Shown here: positions 9,819 to 37,462 of the stretch, in pieces
How the letters are laid out: each line of letters opens with the position of its first letter
Numbering within the stretch: position 1 is the first letter of the stretch
Program-made: the position numbers and the translations under genes
Notes under the pieces: model-generated
Databases searched by the model: none
Seen by the model: the letters and a program-made list of their open reading frames with translations, nothing else
What the model was told of the DNA's origin: nothing
From: Candidatus Poribacteria bacterium
Lineage (GTDB): Bacteria; Poribacteria; WGA-4E; WGA-3G
Direction of reading: 5' to 3'
Assembly: GCA_047516705.1 (NCBI GenBank)
Contig: JAKZUG010000097.1
Location: 1-38,010, forward strand
DNA length: 38,010 bases

Positions 9819-10661
9819 ATGAAAAGCCTAATCTATCTCCTCGCAACCACGCTAATTATTACTATGCTTCTCCAAAACGGGCACACACAACCCATCGTGA
9901 CAGACGGACTCGTGAGTTATTGGACGTTTGACGAGCAGGACATTACCGGCTTTACAGTCAAAGATGTCTGGGGTGAAAATGATGGTAAAATAGTCGGTAA
10001 TCCGCAAGTCGTTGATGGGCAAGTCGGAGAGGCACTCGAATTTGACGGTGCTAACGACTATGTCAACTTGACGAACCTCGGCGATTTTGGAGAGAAAATC
10101 GGTACATCTACATTTGAGGTTTGGATGAAAACCAGTTTTAAAAATGACTGGACAACCCTTTTCAAAGTCCTTGACCAAGGTTGTAACATGGCATGGGCAA
10201 TTGAGCCCAACCGGAGCGCGCAAGCCGGGTTCCCATTTGCTGAAGGTATCATTCACTACTACGTCCGTCAGCAATCGGCAGCGGGCTGTACCGCCATCGC
10301 TGTTGAAATCGAATTTCCGATCTCCGATGGGCAATGGCACCATATCGTTTTCGCAATTGTGGATGCTGGTAAAGCCGAAGTCAGCATTTATATGGACGGC
10401 GAGCCACAAGAGATCATCGTCGGCGACGCAAAGGAACTCGACAATTTTGTTCCATTTGTAGAACCCATCTTTATCGGTGCGGGGAATAATCGCGGTGCCG
10501 TCAGCCGACATTTCCCTGGCACCATTGATGAAGTCCGCATTTATGATCGACCCCTCACAGCGGATGAAGTGACCCGAAACTTTGAATCCAAAATAGGTTT
10601 GTCTGTTGAAGCAGCCGAGAAGCTACCTATCGTTTGGGGCAACTTGAAGACACAATTGTAG
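9819..10661 (+). CDS. Secreted LamG domain protein, paralogue 2 of 3
   Basis: The ATG at 9819 follows aaaggag and gives the signal peptide MKSLIYLLATTLIITMLLQNG. By eye it is roughly 85% identical to paralogue 1. The track start at 9711 lies in the conserved leader. Confidence 0.85.
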   Translation: MKSLIYLLATTLIITMLLQNGHTQPIVTDGLVSYWTFDEQDITGFTVKDVWGENDGKIVGNPQVVDGQVGEALEFDGANDYVNLTNLGDFGEKIGTSTFEVWMKTSFKNDWTTLFKVLDQGCNMAWAIEPNRSAQAGFPFAEGIIHYYVRQQSAAGCTAIAVEIEFPISDGQWHHIVFAIVDAGKAEVSIYMDGEPQEIIVGDAKELDNFVPFVEPIFIGAGNNRGAVSRHFPGTIDEVRIYDRPLTADEVTRNFESKIGLSVEAAEKLPIVWGNLKTQL

Positions 10662-30548: not shown

Positions 30549-30602
30549 TAGTAGGCACAAAGTAGTAGGCATACGCCGTTGTGCCGTAACCTAACAAAAA
30601 TC

Positions 30603-32027
30603 ATGATACACATCCCAATTTTACGCGCCGGGCGTTCTTACAGAAGTCTGAACACCGTCAGCGTGTCACATATCAAAACAAGTGAGCCTTTAGTTGAGGT
30701 GAGCCAAGCTAACCGCGGATTGATAGCGAAGGACCTTGTTGACATTGCCCTCCAAAAAGAGGTGCTTGGACAATGTTCTGTCGCCGAATTGATTTCTATA
30801 TGCAAAGAGGCAGCTCGCCTTTTCACAACGGCTACATTGCCACTGGACGGAACCGACCAATCCCCGACAGATTACATCCAACAGGTTTCTGGGACGACCG
30901 GCTTGCCTGAGGCACTCTGTCAACAGAATCTGGGCAAGATCCAAGGCGTCATGGAGAATATAGAGACGGTTTTAGACGGACTCACTCGCGGCTTAGATTT
31001 ACAACTCCTTGACACTGGGTGGGGTGTCCAAGATGGACGCACGTTGAGTTACGTCTGTGAAACAGATTCACTCGGTGCTATCCTGCCGAGCAATTCGCCG
31101 GGTGTGCATTCGCTGTGGGTGCCTGCTATTGCTTTGAAAGTCCCCGTTGTACTAAAACCTGGACGTGAAGAGCCATGGACCCCTTATCGAATAGCGCAAG
31201 CGTTTATCACAGCCGGTGCTCCCGCAGAGGCGTTCAGCTTCTATCCAACCGATTACAGTGGTGCCAATGAAATTCTAACCCGATGTGGACGCTCCATGCT
31301 TTTCGGTGGCGGTTCAACCGTCGCACCGTGGCTGAACACCCCCCGCGTCGAAATCCACGGACCCGGACGCAGCAAAATCATCATCCATGAAGGACAACAG
31401 AGCAACTGGGAACAGTACCTTGATCTCATCGTAGAATCGGTCACCATAAACGGAGGTAGATCTTGCATTAACGCCTCTGGCGTGTGGGTAACGGCACACG
31501 GACGTGAAATCGCTGAAGCGTTAGCAGAACGCTTGGCACGTATTGAACCGAAACCGCTGGATCATCCTGATGCAGGAATCGCAGCGTGGGCAAATCCGAA
31601 AGCCGCACACGGCATTTCATTGCTGATTGATCGGCACCTCAAAGATCCCGGCGCAACGGAATTGACAACCGGTGACCGGGTCGTTGAATTAGATGGCTGC
31701 ACCTTCCTCAGACCCACTGTGATTTGGTGTGAAGATGCGGAGCACCCATTAGCAAACACGGAATTCCCGTTCCCATTTGTGAGTGTCGTTGAAGTTTCAC
31801 CAACGGAGTTAGTCGAATCTATGGGGGCGACACTGGTTGCCACTGCGATTACAGAGGATGCAGCACTCACGCGAGGCCTCATAGCAACGCCCCTCATTGA
31901 CCGACTCAATTTAGGTGCAATCCCGACAAATCAAATTTCTTGGGATAGTCCGCATGAAGGGAACCTGTTCGAGCATCTCTACAGGCAGCGCGCATTTCAA
32001 CTTGGTTATAGTGAAGCCCGAAAATAA
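30603..32027 (+). CDS. LuxC-like acyl-CoA reductase / aldehyde dehydrogenase superfamily protein
   Basis: The segment ILPSNSPGVHSLWVPAIALKVPVVLKPGREEPWTP parallels the LuxC AGNVP...IIKTSS.DP segment. The catalytic-Cys context is NGGRSCINASGVWV. The C-terminus SPHEGNLFEHLYRQRAF parallels the LuxC GSHDG..PL..L tail. The start is uncertain (ATG at 30603 versus TTG at 30579). Confidence 0.6.
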   Translation: MIHIPILRAGRSYRSLNTVSVSHIKTSEPLVEVSQANRGLIAKDLVDIALQKEVLGQCSVAELISICKEAARLFTTATLPLDGTDQSPTDYIQQVSGTTGLPEALCQQNLGKIQGVMENIETVLDGLTRGLDLQLLDTGWGVQDGRTLSYVCETDSLGAILPSNSPGVHSLWVPAIALKVPVVLKPGREEPWTPYRIAQAFITAGAPAEAFSFYPTDYSGANEILTRCGRSMLFGGGSTVAPWLNTPRVEIHGPGRSKIIIHEGQQSNWEQYLDLIVESVTINGGRSCINASGVWVTAHGREIAEALAERLARIEPKPLDHPDAGIAAWANPKAAHGISLLIDRHLKDPGATELTTGDRVVELDGCTFLRPTVIWCEDAEHPLANTEFPFPFVSVVEVSPTELVESMGATLVATAITEDAALTRGLIATPLIDRLNLGAIPTNQISWDSPHEGNLFEHLYRQRAFQLGYSEARK

Positions 32028-32044
32028 ATGGACATTTCAGTAAC

Positions 32045-32138
32045 CTGTGGGAGGGGTTTCTAACCCCGATCTCCCTTGCCTCCGCTGGCGAGGTTTTGCG
32101 GCGTACGCGCCCAAATGCGATCTGCATTCCTAACCTCG
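32045..32138. repeat. Two REPs of the ctggcg/GTGGG subfamily: a short one (32045-32075) and a long-loop one (32083-32138)
   Basis: ctGTGGGaggggtt-tct-aacccc..., and cgctggcgaggtt[ttgcggcgtacgcgcccaaatgcgatctgcattcct]aacctcg. The loop is the same 35-nt sequence as at 21469-21503. Confidence 0.75.
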
Positions 32139-32156
32139 TCAACTCGAGTGTATAGT

Positions 32157-32290
32157 TATAGTAAAACCGAAAAATAAGTTGACACTTCTGGGAATAACAA
32201 CCCCTCCTTCGCTGGCGGGGTTTGTAACCCCGCCTATTCAGAATGTCCAAGTAATTATAGGCTTCACTATAATTGTAGGCTTTACTATAA
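32157..32290. mobile_element. Second copy of the ttatagtaaa/tttactataa MITE-like element, with a duplicated right end (32256-32272 and 32273-32290)
   Basis: Left TIR at 32157-32166 and right TIR at 32281-32290. Internally it has gttgacacttc and ctggcgggggtt-tgt-aaccccgcc (32212-32234). Confidence 0.7.
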
Positions 32291-32328
32291 TATCCTGAAG
32301 AGAATGGTTCTTTTTAAGGAATTTCACA

Positions 32329-32541
32329 ATGAAAGTAAAGTATTTTCATGATACCGCTACAGCCTTGATTGAGTTTTCAGCACACCCAGTTGCTGAAACA
32401 AAAGAAATCAATGAGAATATCTACATAGATTTGGATGCTACAGGAAATCTGGTTGCGATAACCATTGAACATGCCGACTTACACGCGAATCTACCCGGTT
32501 TATTTTACGGGCAGATAGCACACGGAACAACTAATACATGA
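32329..32541 (+). CDS. DUF2283-like small protein (antitoxin-like fold family), with no partner gene
   Basis: 70 aa. MKVKYFHDTATALIEF...INENIYIDLDATGNLVAITIEHA matches the M.i.YD.e.D.lyi...vD.d..G.i.GIEi pattern. Its stop overlaps the sulfatase ATG (ATGA at 32538-32541). Confidence 0.6.
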   Translation: MKVKYFHDTATALIEFSAHPVAETKEINENIYIDLDATGNLVAITIEHADLHANLPGLFYGQIAHGTTNT

Positions 32542-34037
32542 CCGATAACCCAAATGTCATTCTCATCTTCGCAGACGATCTCGGACGCGGTATGCTCAGT
32601 TGCTATGGACAGCAACATTTCGAGACCCCAAATATCGACCGCCTCGCAAATGAAGGGATGAGGTTCAACCATGCCTACGGGTGCGCGTTTTGCGCGCCAT
32701 CTCGTGCCAGCATGCTGACGGGGATCCACGATTGCCATCAAGGGACATGGACATATACCAAGGGAGGCATCTACCAAAGCATAAGTACCGGTGAAATGAT
32801 GCCAAGTGAGATTTCGGAGTTGATTCATACAACCGGACTCCAAGCCGATCCTGACGATGTCTTCTTAGCACAAATCGCAGAGCAAGCAGGTTATACCACC
32901 GGACAAATCGGGAAACTTGAATGGGGTTTTGCTACAACGGGCGCGCGCATCCGCCGCCACGGCTGGCAGTATCACTACGGTTATTATGATCATCAGCGTT
33001 GCCACGGATTTTATCCGCCTTTTCTCTTTGAGAATGGAGAACTGACAAACATTCGAGGCAATACATACGCTGACTGCGGGAAGCATCCAAATTCGGAGTC
33101 GGACGAAAATATGGAGATTCGCAGGAATCGTCAGGGGAAAGCGGTATATTCTCAGGACATTTTCAACGAAAAAATCATAGCGTTCCTTCGCGATCACAAG
33201 GATAAACCTTTCTTTCTCTATCACCCTTCTCAGTTGCCACATGGACCCATCGCTATTCCTGATATCCACCCAGCCGTGAAACAGTCTTCGGCGTTGACCA
33301 CGTATGAAAAAGAATACGCTTCCATGATCCTAAAATTAGATGAGACCGTCGGGATTATCTTGGACGAACTCGAACGACTCGGTATTGACGACCGCACGAT
33401 GATTGTCTTCTGCTCTGATAACGGACACGAAGTGTATTACCGCCAGGAGGGACGAACTACAGGTAGGCAAGTGGATTTGGATGGCAACCCTTTTGACGAG
33501 ATCACAACGAAATTCTATTCGGAGACAGGTGGCGATGTGTTCAACGGAAACGACGGTATGGGAGGCTTGAAGTTTTCAAGTTGGGAAGGTGGCACGCGAA
33601 TTCCTTACATGGTCCGTTGGCCCGGAAGCATTACACCTGAGAGTGTCTCCAACCACATGCTCACGAACTATGATCTAATGCCAACCCTTGCAGATTTCAT
33701 CGGCGCGGAGATGCCACAAAGCAAAGACGGCGTATCGTTCTTACCGACTTTGCTTGAAAGGCATGAAGACCAGCAGCACCACGAGTGGGTCATATATGCC
33801 TCTCGGCTCGGTCCGGCACTCGTAACGGCAGATGGTTGGAAACTACGGTATATCAACCGCACGGACAGTTTCCAATTATATCATCTCGTCAACGATTACC
33901 GCGAGGAGAACGACATCGCGGCGGATCATCCTGACCTCGTTGCTCGACTCAGTGGATGGATGCTCAATGCGTGTGATGGTGATTATCGAAACGGTACCCC
34001 CGGAGCGCATCTCGCCGCGTATCCGGATGAAAATTGA
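32538..34037 (+). CDS. Formylglycine-dependent sulfatase (arylsulfatase family)
   Basis: N-terminus VILIFADDLGRGMLSCYG, the C-x-P-x-R motif CAPSRASMLTG, and later SDNGHE. No signal peptide is visible. Confidence 0.9.
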   Translation: MTDNPNVILIFADDLGRGMLSCYGQQHFETPNIDRLANEGMRFNHAYGCAFCAPSRASMLTGIHDCHQGTWTYTKGGIYQSISTGEMMPSEISELIHTTGLQADPDDVFLAQIAEQAGYTTGQIGKLEWGFATTGARIRRHGWQYHYGYYDHQRCHGFYPPFLFENGELTNIRGNTYADCGKHPNSESDENMEIRRNRQGKAVYSQDIFNEKIIAFLRDHKDKPFFLYHPSQLPHGPIAIPDIHPAVKQSSALTTYEKEYASMILKLDETVGIILDELERLGIDDRTMIVFCSDNGHEVYYRQEGRTTGRQVDLDGNPFDEITTKFYSETGGDVFNGNDGMGGLKFSSWEGGTRIPYMVRWPGSITPESVSNHMLTNYDLMPTLADFIGAEMPQSKDGVSFLPTLLERHEDQQHHEWVIYASRLGPALVTADGWKLRYINRTDSFQLYHLVNDYREENDIAADHPDLVARLSGWMLNACDGDYRNGTPGAHLAAYPDEN

Positions 34038-34078
34038 TTTGATTCGCCCACTTTCAACACATCAGAGAGGAATATTGT

Positions 34079-35167
34079 ATGCTCATTATTGATGCACACC
34101 TTGATCTGTCCATGAATGCATTACAAGGCAATAGGGATTTGCTAAGTTCTGCCTATACAATTCGCACCCAAGAGGCGCGAACCTCCGGCAAGGGACGCAC
34201 CCAAGGCACTGTCGCGCTTCCAGAGATGCGTCAGGGACGTATTGCACTGAGTTTCGTCACGCTATTTGCCCGTTCAACCGGCAGACCGTCCCCACATTCC
34301 GATTTCGCGTCGCCCGTCCAGTCGTACGGCATCGCACAGGGACAACTGGCTTACTACCACGCTTTAGAAGAAACCGGACACGTCCGTATCATCACAAGTC
34401 GGGAAAACTTGGACAGCCACATTGACGATTGGCGGGATTGGGAGAGCAAGACGACAGGTGATACAAGCGACCATAGTGATACCCCGCCTTTGGGATTTGT
34501 GATTAGTATGGAGGGTGCCGACCCGATTCTTCATCCGGAGCAATTAGAGGTTTGGGTGAAGGGTGGATTGCGTCTGATTGGTTTGACACACTACGGTCCG
34601 GGACGCTACGCCGGCGGAACAGGCACAGAGATTGGATTGACTGAACTCGGTCCACCTCTACTGGCTGAAATGGAACGCTTAGGTGTTATCCTCGACCTCA
34701 CCCACTGTTCTGATGAGGCGTTCTGGGAGGCATTGGAACACTACAATGGATTAGTTCTCGCCAGTCATAACAACTGCCGCGCGCTGGTTCCCCATCAACG
34801 TCAATTCAGCGATGCGCAATTACGTGCGATCTTTGAGCGGGACGGGGTCATTGGTGCTGCTTTTGATGCGTGGATGCTCCAACCGGGTTGGATTACCGGC
34901 GAAACTCCTAACGACAAGGTTACCTTGAGCAACGTCGTTGACCACATCGACTATATCTGTCAATTAGCAGGCAACAGTCGGCACGCTGCAATCGGTACTG
35001 ACTTAGATGGCGGTTATGGACGTGAACAGTCCCCGAGTGATTTGGACACCATCGCTGATCTACAAAAGATACCGAATTTGTTGGAGGCTCGCGGCTATAA
35101 GACTGATGACATCGCCGCCATCATGCACGGCAACTGGCTCCGATTCTTACACGACGCATGGAGTTAG
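34079..35167 (+). CDS. Membrane (renal-type) dipeptidase, peptidase family M19
   Basis: N-terminus IIDAHLDLSMNAL (HxD zinc ligands), then GLTHYGPGRYAGG, DLTHCSD, ASHNNCRAL, and the C-terminal NWLRFL typical of M19. Confidence 0.85.
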   Translation: MLIIDAHLDLSMNALQGNRDLLSSAYTIRTQEARTSGKGRTQGTVALPEMRQGRIALSFVTLFARSTGRPSPHSDFASPVQSYGIAQGQLAYYHALEETGHVRIITSRENLDSHIDDWRDWESKTTGDTSDHSDTPPLGFVISMEGADPILHPEQLEVWVKGGLRLIGLTHYGPGRYAGGTGTEIGLTELGPPLLAEMERLGVILDLTHCSDEAFWEALEHYNGLVLASHNNCRALVPHQRQFSDAQLRAIFERDGVIGAAFDAWMLQPGWITGETPNDKVTLSNVVDHIDYICQLAGNSRHAAIGTDLDGGYGREQSPSDLDTIADLQKIPNLLEARGYKTDDIAAIMHGNWLRFLHDAWS

Positions 35168-35181
35168 ACAAACTCGTAGCA

Positions 35182-35285
35182 TAGGTGAGAACCGGACAAA
35201 TCAGATCTCTTGGGGTAGCCCCGATGGAAGCAGCCTGTTTGAGTATCTCTACAGACAGCACACATTTCAGCAAAAACACTTCTAA
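35182..35285 (+). pseudogene. Orphan 3' fragment of a LuxC-like gene, homologous to 31911-32027
   Basis: It translates to NRTNQISWGSPDGSSLFEYLYRQHTFQQKHF*, compared with IPTNQISWDSPHEGNLFEHLYRQRAFQLGYSEARK* at the end of the 30603-32027 gene. By eye it is about 75% identical at the nucleotide level. No upstream body is present, and it starts 15 nt after the dipeptidase stop. Confidence 0.75.
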
Positions 35286-35447
35286 CTTGTTGAGCCTCGC
35301 TCCTGAGCCCTATGAACCCTCTATGAGATGGCTTGTGAATTTACATCTTGGTATTCAGTTCAATCTTATGTTACAATTACCAGAGATGCAAAACGTTTAT
35401 AATCGCATGTCTCTCCTTTTTTATTTTGAAACACCAGGAGGATTATA

Positions 35448-35717
35448 ATGCCGTATCCGAATTATACACCTGAAGTTGTCACCGCCCGCGGCGAAGAAAT
35501 CTATCAGCAACAGATACGACACAAAGTTGAACAGCAGCACAAAGGCAAATTCTTGGTCCTTGACATTGAAACTGGAGACTACGAAATTGACGCTGAAGAT
35601 TTGGAAGCAACGATGCGATTGCTTGCCAAGCACCCGAAAGCTATCACCTACGGTGTGCGGATCGGATATCCGGCAGCCTACGGAATTGGTTTTAACTTCA
35701 CGGCATATACAAAATGA
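35448..35717 (+). CDS. Small (89 aa) hypothetical protein, the upstream partner of the retropepsin-like protease
   Basis: AGGAGG lies 7 nt upstream of the ATG. The stop overlaps the partner's ATG (ATGA at 35714-35717). The core is GKFLVLDIETGDYEIDAEDLEATMRLLAKHP. No family is assigned with confidence. Confidence 0.7.
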   Translation: MPYPNYTPEVVTARGEEIYQQQIRHKVEQQHKGKFLVLDIETGDYEIDAEDLEATMRLLAKHPKAITYGVRIGYPAAYGIGFNFTAYTK

Positions 35718-36085
35718 TTATTGGAAAAATTAGGGCAGATCGAGAAGCGATCATTAAATTGGAAATTGTTGGATCAAATCACAGCGAAAAGGTTGAGGTG
35801 GTCATTGATACCGGTTTCACGGGATTTTTAATGCTGCCGATCGATTTGATTAACCGCCTTAGACTTCAACTGATCGGTAACCGACGCGCAATTCTTGGTG
35901 ATGGGAGTCCGGTTAGTTTTGATCTGTATCTTGCCAGAGTAGTGTGGCACGACGAAACACGTGAGGTTCCCACACTCGGAGCGAAACATGATGGTGCACT
36001 GCTTGGTATGTCTATGCTTTCTGGAAGTCGTGCAGTATTAGAGGTCATACCAAATGGTCCTGTAACCATTTCCCCTTTGGCGTAA
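35714..36085 (+). CDS. Retropepsin-like (clan AA) aspartic peptidase, single-domain
   Basis: 123 aa. The active-site motif is VVIDTGFTGFLMLP (D-T-G). The distal ALLGMSMLSG resembles the G.D/S.L flap/dimer motif of bacterial and archaeal retropepsin-like proteins. Confidence 0.7.
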   Translation: MIIGKIRADREAIIKLEIVGSNHSEKVEVVIDTGFTGFLMLPIDLINRLRLQLIGNRRAILGDGSPVSFDLYLARVVWHDETREVPTLGAKHDGALLGMSMLSGSRAVLEVIPNGPVTISPLA

Positions 36086-36086
36086 A

Positions 36087-36150
36087 TGATGACATTACTG
36101 CTATCATGCCCGGTAATTGGCTGCGATTCTTACATGATGCATGGAGTAAG
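36087..36150 (+). pseudogene. Orphan diverged copy of the dipeptidase 3' tail, a direct repeat of 35104-35167
   Basis: 53 of 64 nt are identical. It translates to DDITAIMPGNWLRFLHDAWS versus DDIAAIMHGNWLRFLHDAWS*. Seven of the 11 differences are synonymous third-position changes. The stop is mutated to AAG, so the frame runs on into a REP. Confidence 0.85.
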
Positions 36151-36159
36151 AAAAACCGT

Positions 36160-36186
36160 GGTAGGAGCGATCTCCGAATCGCGACT
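36160..36186. repeat. Type-2 REP (gGTAGGAGCGATctccgaATCGCgact)
   Basis: 25 of 27 positions (the shared core gtaggagcgatctccgaatcgcgact) are identical to 21908-21934. Confidence 0.85.
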
Positions 36187-36197
36187 AATGTACAAAT

Positions 36198-36464
36198 CTA
36201 AGCGGAGTTATCTTCGTTTACAGTGGAGTCACTGCCTAAGATTTTCGCAATTTGTAAGGTAAGATCAGACAATTCAGCAGTAGAGATTTTCCACACAACC
36301 TCAATGTCCACACCAAAATAGTGATGGATAAGTCTATCCCTTGTGGGCGTAAACACGATTTTTGCGGTTTTGGGAGATTTTGCCCAAATCCTCGAAACGC
36401 TTACCGACAATAACATCACCACCAAAGCGTAAAAGATTGGTATGAGTTTGAGATGCTTTCTCAT
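36198..36464 (-). pseudogene. Chimeric ORF: a signal peptide and PD40/TolB-like start fused to the C-terminal third of a HepT (DUF86, HEPN) toxin
   Basis: Residues 42-88, RDRLIHHYFGVDIEVVWKISTAELSDLTLQIAKIL, carry the HEPN RX4HXY motif and the typical HepT tail. Residues 1-41 are a signal peptide plus KIVFTPTRD. The HepT N-terminal helices are missing and there is no MNT partner. Confidence 0.6.
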
Positions 36465-36476
36465 TCAACTTATTTT

Positions 36477-37462
36477 CTAATCAGATATACTTGTGAACAG
36501 CAGCAGCATCGCAACGACAAAGCCTAAATTGCCAGCGATAGACCCTTTCGTTACGAGTGTTTTGCGAAGCGATGCTGTTTTCGATTTATAGATTTGGGTA
36601 TAAGCTTCGATATACTCAGGTGATTTGCCGAGGAGTTGCTCTGGTGGTGGCGTTGCGTTGTGCGGATACATGTGCACGCCAATCGGCACTGCCAAGGCAC
36701 CAAGAAGGATAGCACCTGCGGCAGCGCAACCCGCCTGCGAGGCAGTGGGTATAAGTGATAGACCCAAGCCTAAAGACTTGGGCTTCTGCATCGTGACACA
36801 GAAGCGTTTGTGGTATCAACAAGGGTTGCTTGCTATGCAAGTCTGATACCCTCTCCGCCAAGGGTTGCTACCCCAACCCCGCACCGAAGTGCCTAAATGT
36901 TTTGAGAGTGCGTTGTTTCGGGATTCGCCATTACGCGCCTTTCCCATTACACTCAAGTCTCCCATCAGCATCTATCTGGTGTCGTTAGACTTCTACCGCT
37001 TGTGTCGCAACTTTACGTGAGTCCACTCGGTATGCAGCCCCCAGGAGGCATGCTCAGAACCTCACACGCAAGCGCGTGATCGAGTTACTAAAGGAAATTA
37101 AATCACATTTTAGACCAAATGTCAACGCTTTTTTTAGGCGTTTGGACTCATTAACGAGGGCGGACTTTCATCCCAAACCTAAAGGATTGGGTTTTCAGTC
37201 CGTAAACAGGGTAAAACATCAGACCCTCCAAACGGATCCAACCTTGCTCCTAACGCACACCCTCCGACACAACCGAGGACGCAGCCAGCGGTGCTACTCA
37301 CCCACCTAACATAAACCACCACCCTTTTTTCATATCGTGGTTTGTGTCCCTTAGGGCATCGGCTTCCGCTTGTGTTTGCACGGAATTCTGTTGTACGAGA
37401 CTGACAGGCATCGTGCTGAAAAGTAATAAGGTTGCCGTGAAAAAGGCGAGTATACGAAACAT
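36477..37462 (-). pseudogene. Disrupted paralogue of the glycine-zipper membrane protein at 37539-38010. It has a 1-nt deletion near 37300-37303 and a ~490-bp insertion at 36732-37223.
   Basis: The N-terminal part (start at 37462) aligns to the intact copy up to GGCALGARLDPFGG. The C-terminal part (36477 to about 36731) aligns from GCAAAGAILLGALAVP onward. A run of 4 C in the intact copy (37861-37864) is 3 C here. Confidence 0.8.
36732..37223 (-). mobile_element. Non-coding ~490-bp insertion with same-orientation subterminal hairpins (IS200/IS605-derived PATE-like) and an internal promoter-like site and stem-loops
   Basis: The hairpins are cccaaacctaaaggattggg (37172-37191) and cccaagcctaaagacttggg (36763-36782), in direct orientation about 30-40 nt inside each junction. 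On the minus strand there is TTGACA-N17-TTTAAT (37125-37097). Several 5-7-bp stems are present. The only ORFs in the track here are 73-105-aa translations (36625..36846, 37076..37309, 37179..37496), which I treat as spurious. Confidence 0.5.

Follow-up and report, generated by a model that had tools for sequence, protein, structure and literature searches.

A stranded copy of a dipeptidase gene 3′ end in a Poribacteria genome as a probable by-product of homology-facilitated illegitimate recombination

Introduction

The last 64 nucleotides of an M19 dipeptidase gene are present twice in a 38,010-nt stretch of DNA from a Candidatus Poribacteria bacterium (GCA_047516705.1, contig JAKZUG010000097.1), hereafter the window. 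A small cassette of two genes lies between the copies; the first copy (C1) ends the intact dipeptidase gene, and the second (C2) is an orphan downstream of the cassette. The duplicate is probably a by-product of recombination of the type known as homology-facilitated illegitimate recombination (HFIR) with DNA of a diverged Poribacteria lineage, which left the native tail stranded. A first-pass annotation, made from the letters of the window alone, had described the arrangement as a miniature or decayed site-specific integrative element, a reading that is not upheld by the comparison with related genomes presented here.

The window is the entire contig C97 of the metagenome-assembled genome (MAG) G000, the genome under study, which comprises 758 contigs and 5.3 Mb with 5.4% contamination. 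Its relatives are Candidatus Poribacteria that live as symbionts of sponges. G078 denotes the sister genome, a single-contig MAG assembly, and L numbers denote loci fetched from relatives. On the plus strand, the order of features is a LuxC-like gene (tail A1), DUF2283, sulfatase, dipeptidase (tail C1), 14 nt, an orphan LuxC-like tail (A2), about 50 nt, a conserved upstream region, the gene of an 89-aa protein (p89), the gene of a 123-aa clan AA “DTGF” protease, C2, a spacer, and the 3′ part of HepT on the minus strand (Table 1).

The repeated dipeptidase tail

The direct repeat extends over 35104–35173 and 36087–36156, with 83% identity and no gaps (pairwise blastn, E = 1e-16). In its coding part, C1 (35104–35167) and C2 (36087–36150) are identical at 53 of 64 positions, a count already given by the first-pass annotation and reproduced here. 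When the comparison is phased by codon, the 11 differences are distributed over the three codon positions as 2/1/8 (P = 0.009 for at least eight at third positions), and seven codons have a synonymous third-position change as their sole difference. The tail peptides, DDIAAIMHGNWLRFLHDAWS* for C1 and DDITAIMPGNWLRFLHDAWSK for C2, differ at 2 of 20 residues. The differences are biased toward third positions and therefore arose under coding constraint, in agreement with the annotation, which had noted the same seven synonymous changes and the same peptide distance and had concluded that the copies diverged as coding sequence. To this can be added that C2 has lost the stop codon and carries a His-to-Pro change within the conserved MHGNW motif. 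The longest block identical in both copies is 11 nt (CGATTCTTACA); the event is older than the split of G000 and G078, so a core could have mutated since.

The two copies have different affinities among the relatives. C1 is 92–97% identical to the tails of several of the nearest ones, and the 14 nt that follow the dipeptidase stop codon in the window match two cassette-bearing loci, L022 and L023. C2 is closest to the alleles of genomes in which HepT is adjacent to the dipeptidase (L105, L097, and L113), and C1 is not a nearer match to it than the alleles of other species are.

Empty sites and cassette-bearing relatives

A base-for-base alignment pairs the segment 36087–36345 of the window with the native dipeptidase tail of L031 and L038 and with the stop codon, spacer, and minus-strand HepT gene that follow it, and the locus survey places HepT 27–120 nt after the dipeptidase in several further genomes. 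The empty site that the first-pass annotation had predicted thus exists in L031 and L038. Because the dipeptidase tail, spacer, and HepT of these relatives are colinear with 36087–36345, C2 with its flank is most likely the native end of the dipeptidase gene, and C1 most likely came in with the cassette. The same alignment supports the earlier proposal of an insertion between the copies, one that provides the gene with a substitute 3′ end while the native tail stays behind at the far junction.

The opposite haplotype is also found. Among the first 20 loci from relatives, six have the cassette immediately after the dipeptidase (L023, L024, L025, and L037, and in partial form L022 and L027), and none of these six contains a second tail copy. 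Four of them were aligned beyond the protease stop codon, and their downstream sequences are unrelated past a few bases. A metagenome contig from run X6 joins position 35172 to 35419 with 16 mismatches in 170 nt; this joint belongs to a co-occurring relative, in which the cassette follows the dipeptidase without the LuxC-tail copy.

The cassette

The two-gene module reported at 35448–36085 between the tail copies is confirmed, with genes for an 89-aa and a 123-aa protein that overlap by ATGA at 35714–35717. The 123-aa protein scores 56.8 bits against TIGR03698, the model of the clan AA “DTGF” proteases, for a cut-off of 57.35, and contains the motif VIDTGFTG. Searches of p89 against Pfam, NCBIfam, PADLOC, and PDB sequences gave no usable name, and those of the pair against PADLOC and PDB sequences gave no match; the pair is predicted to be toxin–antitoxin-like.

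Of 65 genus members, 55 carry the p89 family, each with one to five copies, and its more distant representatives (50–80% identity) are located elsewhere. At >90% identity, the cassette is single-copy in G000, with no other copy at the DNA level, and all fetched loci but one (L186) place it in the dipeptidase neighborhood. The first-pass annotation had proposed that the cassette be sought beside different gene tails and had counted its absence from other contexts against its own idea; at that identity, this single locus is the one exception to an otherwise constant context. The boundaries of the cassette are sharp in all relatives, and on the left it begins with the region 35336–35447, which is common to all cassette-bearing relatives. 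In two cassette-free genomes, N-terminal fragments of the protease gene directly follow the dipeptidase tail (L040, 7662–7722; L034, 7112–7192); these are debris of an earlier occupancy of the same slot by the cassette.

Integrity of the assembly

The structure is no artefact of the assembly. Four sponge-metagenome runs from three studies yielded contigs that span the junctions with 0–2 differences, and one such contig, of 1676 nt, covers 35108–36700 with two. G078 shares the dipeptidase–LuxC-tail–p89 arrangement, that is, the left half of the structure, in a single contig. A chimera of two co-occurring strains merged in the MAG might be suspected in an assembly with the fragmentation (758 contigs) and contamination (5.4%) of G000, but these contigs and G078 speak against it, as does the junction between the protease stop codon and C2, which offers no repeat able to mislead an assembler, and the chance of such a chimera is negligible.

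Orphan tails with other cargo

Stranded gene ends are not confined to the cassette described above. Orphan dipeptidase tails of about 113 nt in L040 and 272 nt in L114 both lie downstream of the gene of a 137-aa lipoprotein, and in L035 the same lipoprotein gene stands between the dipeptidase and HepT with no duplication. Over its whole length, the resident dipeptidase of L114 is of the allele type found in the lipoprotein-bearing genomes, and the orphan is nearest to the alleles of other genomes.

A scan that covered all called genes of G000 revealed further orphan tails on other contigs, each downstream of its parent gene, with cargo that includes HicA/HicB and a GmrSD restriction enzyme (Table 1). 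For four gene–orphan pairs, third positions account for 8/11, 24/41, 23/36, and 10/17 of the differences (62% when pooled); our own rough model predicts about 44% for a copy that arose in situ and of which one member then decayed neutrally. Inspection by eye of the cassette ends and orphan starts at five loci revealed no common motif. The orphan on C111 is also present in G078 (L183), but there a 14-kb island separates it from its gene, compared with 0.7 kb in G000. This island contains two DUF1670 proteins, an IS4-type transposase, and cadherin-like surface proteins, and no integrase was seen among its open reading frames (ORFs) that were scanned or read by eye. Another orphan tail, on C755 (7008–10694), lies downstream of its parent gene and flanks a 749-aa ORF.

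Table 1. Features of the window and orphan tails on other contigs of G000
Feature	Position	Strand	Basis or content
LuxC-like aldehyde dehydrogenase gene	30579–32027	+	Pfam Aldedh; tail A1 (31912–31999) is the source type of orphan A2
DUF2283 gene, located between the LuxC-like gene and sulfatase in a variable slot	32329–32541	+	Pfam DUF2283; present in some relatives and not in others (locus survey)
Sulfatase gene, member of the conserved LuxC–sulfatase–dipeptidase block	32538–34037	+	Pfam Sulfatase; synteny in at least 20 genomes
M19 dipeptidase gene	34079–35167	+	Pfam Peptidase_M19; resident tail C1 is 35104–35167
Orphan LuxC-like tail A2	35182–35285	+	Repeat comparison; also in G078
About 50 nt between A2 and the conserved upstream region of the cassette	35286–35335		Sole match is the same stretch of G078
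Conserved upstream region of the cassette, probably promoter	35336–35447	+	Alignment; blastn of 35286–35447
89-aa protein gene (p89), without family match, first of the predicted toxin–antitoxin-like pair	35448–35717	+	Profile searches
123-aa retropepsin-like clan AA “DTGF” aspartic protease gene, second of the pair	35714–36085	+	TIGR03698; weak Pfam gag-asp_proteas match
Orphan dipeptidase tail C2, most likely the native 3′ end, now non-coding	36087–36150	+	Repeat comparison; alignments of relatives
Native spacer downstream of the dipeptidase	36151–36197		Colinear with empty-site genomes L031 and L038 except for a deletion of about 50 nt
3′ part of the native neighbor, the HepT toxin gene, cut at about 36347	36198–36347	−	Pfam HepT-like; 86% identical to L031 and L038
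Orphan tail, altronate-dehydratase-like parent	C111, 88–2795		Orphan 276 nt, 85%; cargo HicA/HicB
Orphan tail, PhyH-like parent	C28, 20–1438		Orphan 129 nt, 87%; cargo 143-aa ORF
Orphan tail, parent not assigned	C749, 3041–4117		Orphan 53 nt, 87%; cargo 88-aa ORF
Orphan tail, parent not assigned	C180, 1604–4339		Orphan 104 nt, 81%; cargo GmrSD restriction enzyme

Proposed recombination

In the recombination that probably produced the duplicate, the recipient would have carried the dipeptidase gene followed directly by a HepT/MNT toxin–antitoxin locus, and the donor would have carried the dipeptidase followed by the p89/retropepsin-like cassette. Donor DNA, which may have entered by transformation or by another route, would have crossed over homologously at a presumed point within the conserved dipeptidase gene or upstream of it. 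The other end of this DNA, located 1 nt after the last stop codon of the cassette, would have been joined illegitimately 64 nt before the stop codon of the recipient gene. The donor allele of the tail, C1, would thus keep the gene intact, and the recipient tail, C2, would be stranded downstream, where it decays. Both haplotypes that this requires, the empty-site and the donor type, are present among the relatives. The junction reads GCGTAAA joined to TGATGAC; the relatives have TAAAT after the protease stop codon and TATAAT before GA(T/C)GAC in the dipeptidase, which allows for a microhomology of 3–5 nt. Along all three genes of the conserved block, moreover, the nearest relative switches segment by segment, a pattern that indicates frequent homologous recombination between species. 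A sliding window places the nearest relatives after G078 among non-cassette types at positions 226–675 of the dipeptidase and among cassette-bearing types at 676–1050, a shift that half-gene trees do not support and that is not relied on here.

The orphan tail A2 adds a complication. Over 35182–35269 it is 78% identical to A1 (31912–31999), with which the LuxC-like gene of the window ends 3.2 kb upstream, and it is shared with G078 and hence older than the split of the two genomes. The first-pass annotation had suggested that this tail may be a relic of a previous residence in a luxC-like gene; it overlooked that A2 copies the LuxC-like gene of the same conserved block. A second one-sided recombination, anchored in the LuxC-like gene, may have imported the whole segment from the LuxC tail to the dipeptidase, after which the redundant older sulfatase–dipeptidase copy would have been deleted. 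This two-step course is one consistent, hypothetical scenario, which uses only event types observed here. Among about 60 dipeptidase loci and 29 p89 loci, none has the cassette after a LuxC-like gene, which would be a possible source of A2, except that of G078, which shares A2.

Several observations weigh against HFIR-type recombination. A2 is not explained by a single event of this kind and requires a second one, and the differences between A1 and A2 (4/7/8 by codon position) show no third-position bias. The source of the approximately 50 nt that follow A2 could not be matched across the fetched loci, the genome, and the spacers downstream of LuxC, the same stretch of G078 excepted. The illegitimate joint would lie at a 3–5 nt microhomology (TAAAT/TATAAT-like) that is deduced from present-day relatives and not from the parents. 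In separate trees for the 5′ part and the 3′ part of this gene, cassette presence is scattered like shuffled labels (10–11 changes vs. about 12), which gives no sign of the left crossover in the dipeptidase. The right end of the donor DNA lies only 1 nt after the cassette stop codon, and with boundaries that are sharp in all relatives, this would suit a discrete mobile unit. In the genome-wide scan, orphan tails are in modest excess, with 21 in G000 vs. 13 and 11 orphan heads and middles. Finally, for these uncultivated bacteria, uptake of DNA by transformation or by any other route is hypothetical. The sharp boundaries could reflect selection on a functional unit amid rapid turnover of its flanks. 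ComEC and DprA homologues are found in G000 and in all same-genus genomes tested, which is compatible with DNA uptake and shows no more than that. The DprA/DNA_processg_A family has two to six strong matches per genome in G000 and the same-genus genomes, far above the usual number of one.

Alternative explanations

The interleaved order A1…C1–A2…C2, with A2 abutting the 3′ flank of the dipeptidase, would follow in one step, and thus more simply, from an in-situ tandem duplication of a 3.27-kb unit (31912–35181, from the LuxC tail through the 14 nt that follow the dipeptidase stop codon), the second copy of which was then mostly replaced by the cassette, so that A2 and C2 are its ends. The divergences of A1/A2 (22%) and C1/C2 (17%) are alike, and A2 and C2 are both farther from every relative than the resident copies, which indicates neutral decay. 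However, remnants of a sulfatase or dipeptidase body are absent from 35168–36086, which holds only A2, about 50 nt, and the cassette; the first-pass annotation had itself named a decayed tandem paralogue with further upstream remnants as a rival to its idea, and none lies between the copies. The resident copies C1 and A1 are not nearer to C2 and A2 than the alleles of other species are, the third-position bias of C1/C2 points to coding constraint, and no other genus member has such a duplication, though the copies diverge more than species do. A cassette within the second copy would also need two extra illegitimate joints, and the duplication does not account for the analogous orphan tails of L040, L114, C111, C28, and others. 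Tandem duplication fits the remaining evidence less well than the two-event scenario and is unlikely.

A single homologous crossover within the 64-nt tail could also have integrated, in the manner of Campbell, a circularized tail–spacer–cassette fragment of a relative. Such an integration yields exactly the observed product, needs no illegitimate joint in the recipient, and fits the diverged copies as well as the existing donor and recipient haplotypes. Yet the joint of the circle must fall exactly between the protease stop codon and codon 342 of the dipeptidase, and 64 nt at about 83% identity are a very poor substrate for RecA-type recombination, given the homology-length dependence cited in PMC2884548. 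The resident dipeptidase of L114, which is wholly donor-type beyond the duplicated part, favors a crossover far upstream, and integration of a circle is accordingly rather improbable.

Much the same standing, that of an improbable reading, is left to the site-specific integrative element of the first-pass annotation, in which an attP site mimics the dipeptidase 3′ end and a tyrosine or serine recombinase acts in trans on a miniature or decayed copy. The geometry fits, since the near junction has the surrogate tail and the far junction the native one, as do the sharp, conserved cassette boundaries in all genomes, and about 10 PF00589 tyrosine-recombinase matches exist elsewhere in G000, on other contigs only. 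Against it, the cassette and the larger ORFs of the window lack a recombinase domain, and no block longer than the 11 nt given above is identical in C1 and C2. At the same gene, the orphans differ in length (64, about 113, and 272 nt) and accompany two different cassettes, contrary to what a fixed attachment site would give. The six cassette-bearing loci among the first 20 have zero orphan tails, and the cassette at >90% identity is confined to the dipeptidase neighborhood and single-copy in the genome. The excision joint was not found in public runs, a search of little power, as assembled contigs drop rare variants. A dedicated Poribacteria process, in which a recombinase in trans or recognition of cassette ends would place toxin–antitoxin and defence cassettes with a surrogate tail at the 3′ ends of conserved genes and leave orphan tails as its footprint, may be considered because the boundaries are sharp in every genome, the donor end lies 1 nt past the stop codon, and the cargo is biased to toxin–antitoxin and defence genes; it is very unlikely.

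Gene neighborhood

The block of LuxC-like gene, (DUF2283), sulfatase, and dipeptidase is kept genus-wide, and its three intergenic slots are highly variable. The locus is a hot spot rich in toxin–antitoxin debris, miniature inverted-repeat transposable elements (MITEs), and an IS200/IS605-like non-autonomous element. An Rfam scan of the window gave zero matches.

Downstream of the cassette, an ORF on the minus strand (36198–36464) matches the Pfam HepT-like profile at positions 86–120 of 120, and its reading frame continues in L031 and L038, which are 86% identical to the part in the window. The frame breaks off at about 36347, where it joins unrelated sequence, and the region 36334–36476 is shared with G078 at 86–90% identity. 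This truncation predates the split of G000 and G078 and is separate from the tail duplication. The count of three orphan 3′ tails within 1.2 kb in the first-pass annotation therefore stands for the dipeptidase and LuxC-like tails, which are displaced; the HepT fragment is of another kind, a truncated native neighbor.

The slots of the block vary in other ways. The sulfatase is wholly missing in two genomes (L117 and L119), where 32–99 nt separate the LuxC-like gene from the dipeptidase, and inserts of 2.6–4 kb occupy the sulfatase–dipeptidase slot in others (L073, 8075–10700; L107). MITE-like repeats with the terminal inverted repeats TTATAGTGAAGCC/GGCTTCACTATAA, nested or adjacent, lie at 32005–32290 of the window, and the last seven or so codons and the stop codon of the LuxC-like gene (from about 32005) come from the left end of such a repeat; the orthologues of its protein align only up to residues 474–476 of 482. 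The same MITE family is found in G078 (L072 reverse complement, 10409–10546) exactly where the p89 end, the protease gene, C2, and the HepT fragment are deleted. Another element, a 457-nt non-coding insertion at 36755–37211, interrupts a membrane-protein paralogue, and G078 has the exact empty site, uninterrupted, between 10965 and 10967 of the L072 reverse complement. It is multi-copy in G000, with full-length copies on C640 (81%) and C660 (75%) and ends of about 120 nt on many contigs.

Relation to known systems

On the reading favored here, small accessory cassettes, which comprise toxin–antitoxin, defence, and lipoprotein genes, are swapped between species of an uncultivated genus of sponge symbionts without mobile-element machinery, and the locus shows how a conserved gene outlives an insertion at its 3′ end. 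Stranded tails are fossils of displaced alleles that mark old recombination joints, and they could serve to count and order cassette turnover across Poribacteria genomes assembled in one or few contigs.

HFIR is known from experiments with Acinetobacter baylyi, Streptococcus pneumoniae, and Pseudomonas stutzeri. According to PMC3240628, it is established in “three naturally competent species” and in E. coli conjugation, and it is also discussed in PMC2884548. Like it, the recombination proposed here has a single homologous anchor, placed in a conserved gene, and a single illegitimate joint; foreign DNA is trapped beside the anchor, and no element-encoded enzyme is needed. Unlike HFIR seen in experiments, this case is deduced from the natural genomes of uncultivated symbionts, including its microhomology and entry route, and the illegitimate joint falls within a stretch that the donor also carries, so that a diverged duplicate of the 3′ end remains.

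HFIR has been put forward as the mechanism for displaced 3′ ends and for orphan immunity genes in type VI secretion system (T6SS) clusters of Vibrio, and for Rhs loci (PMC5361080). As in the displacement of T6SS effector–immunity modules in Vibrio cholerae and of C-terminal ends in Rhs and contact-dependent inhibition (CDI) systems, an incoming module recombines via a conserved upstream region and moves the older 3′ end downstream, where it stays as an orphan; repeated events build arrays of remnants, and HFIR is the proposed mechanism (PMC5361080 and references therein). In contrast to those systems, the anchors in Poribacteria are ordinary metabolic genes (dipeptidase, LuxC-like dehydrogenase, altronate-dehydratase-like, and PhyH-like), the cargo consists of toxin–antitoxin, defence, or small unknown cassettes, and the orphan comes without a functional module such as an immunity gene.

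Integrative elements with a surrogate 3′ end include islands and prophages in tRNA and tmRNA genes and the lambdoid elements in icd of E. coli. They share with this locus a replacement end at the near side, a native end at the far side, and copies that differ mostly at synonymous sites. Here, however, no integrase lies in the window, the longest block identical in both copies is 11 nt, the length of the duplication and the cargo vary between events, and the cassette is confined to a single chromosomal neighborhood. For genome scans, this means that a diverged direct repeat of a gene 3′ end around a small cassette is not a sufficient sign of an integrase-type element.

The minimal mobile elements of Neisseria and the hot spots of defence and toxin–antitoxin islets are further examples of alternative small cassettes in one slot between conserved genes. 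The classic exchange of the Neisseria type uses homology on both sides and leaves no duplicate. The Poribacteria cassettes likewise share a slot as alternatives and would spread by homologous recombination rather than by machinery of their own; unlike in the Neisseria case, the haplotypes have different downstream flanks, so that one joint would be illegitimate and leave a remnant behind. Compared with all of these systems, the locus is a new, well-documented natural example of a known recombination process and not a new mobile element.

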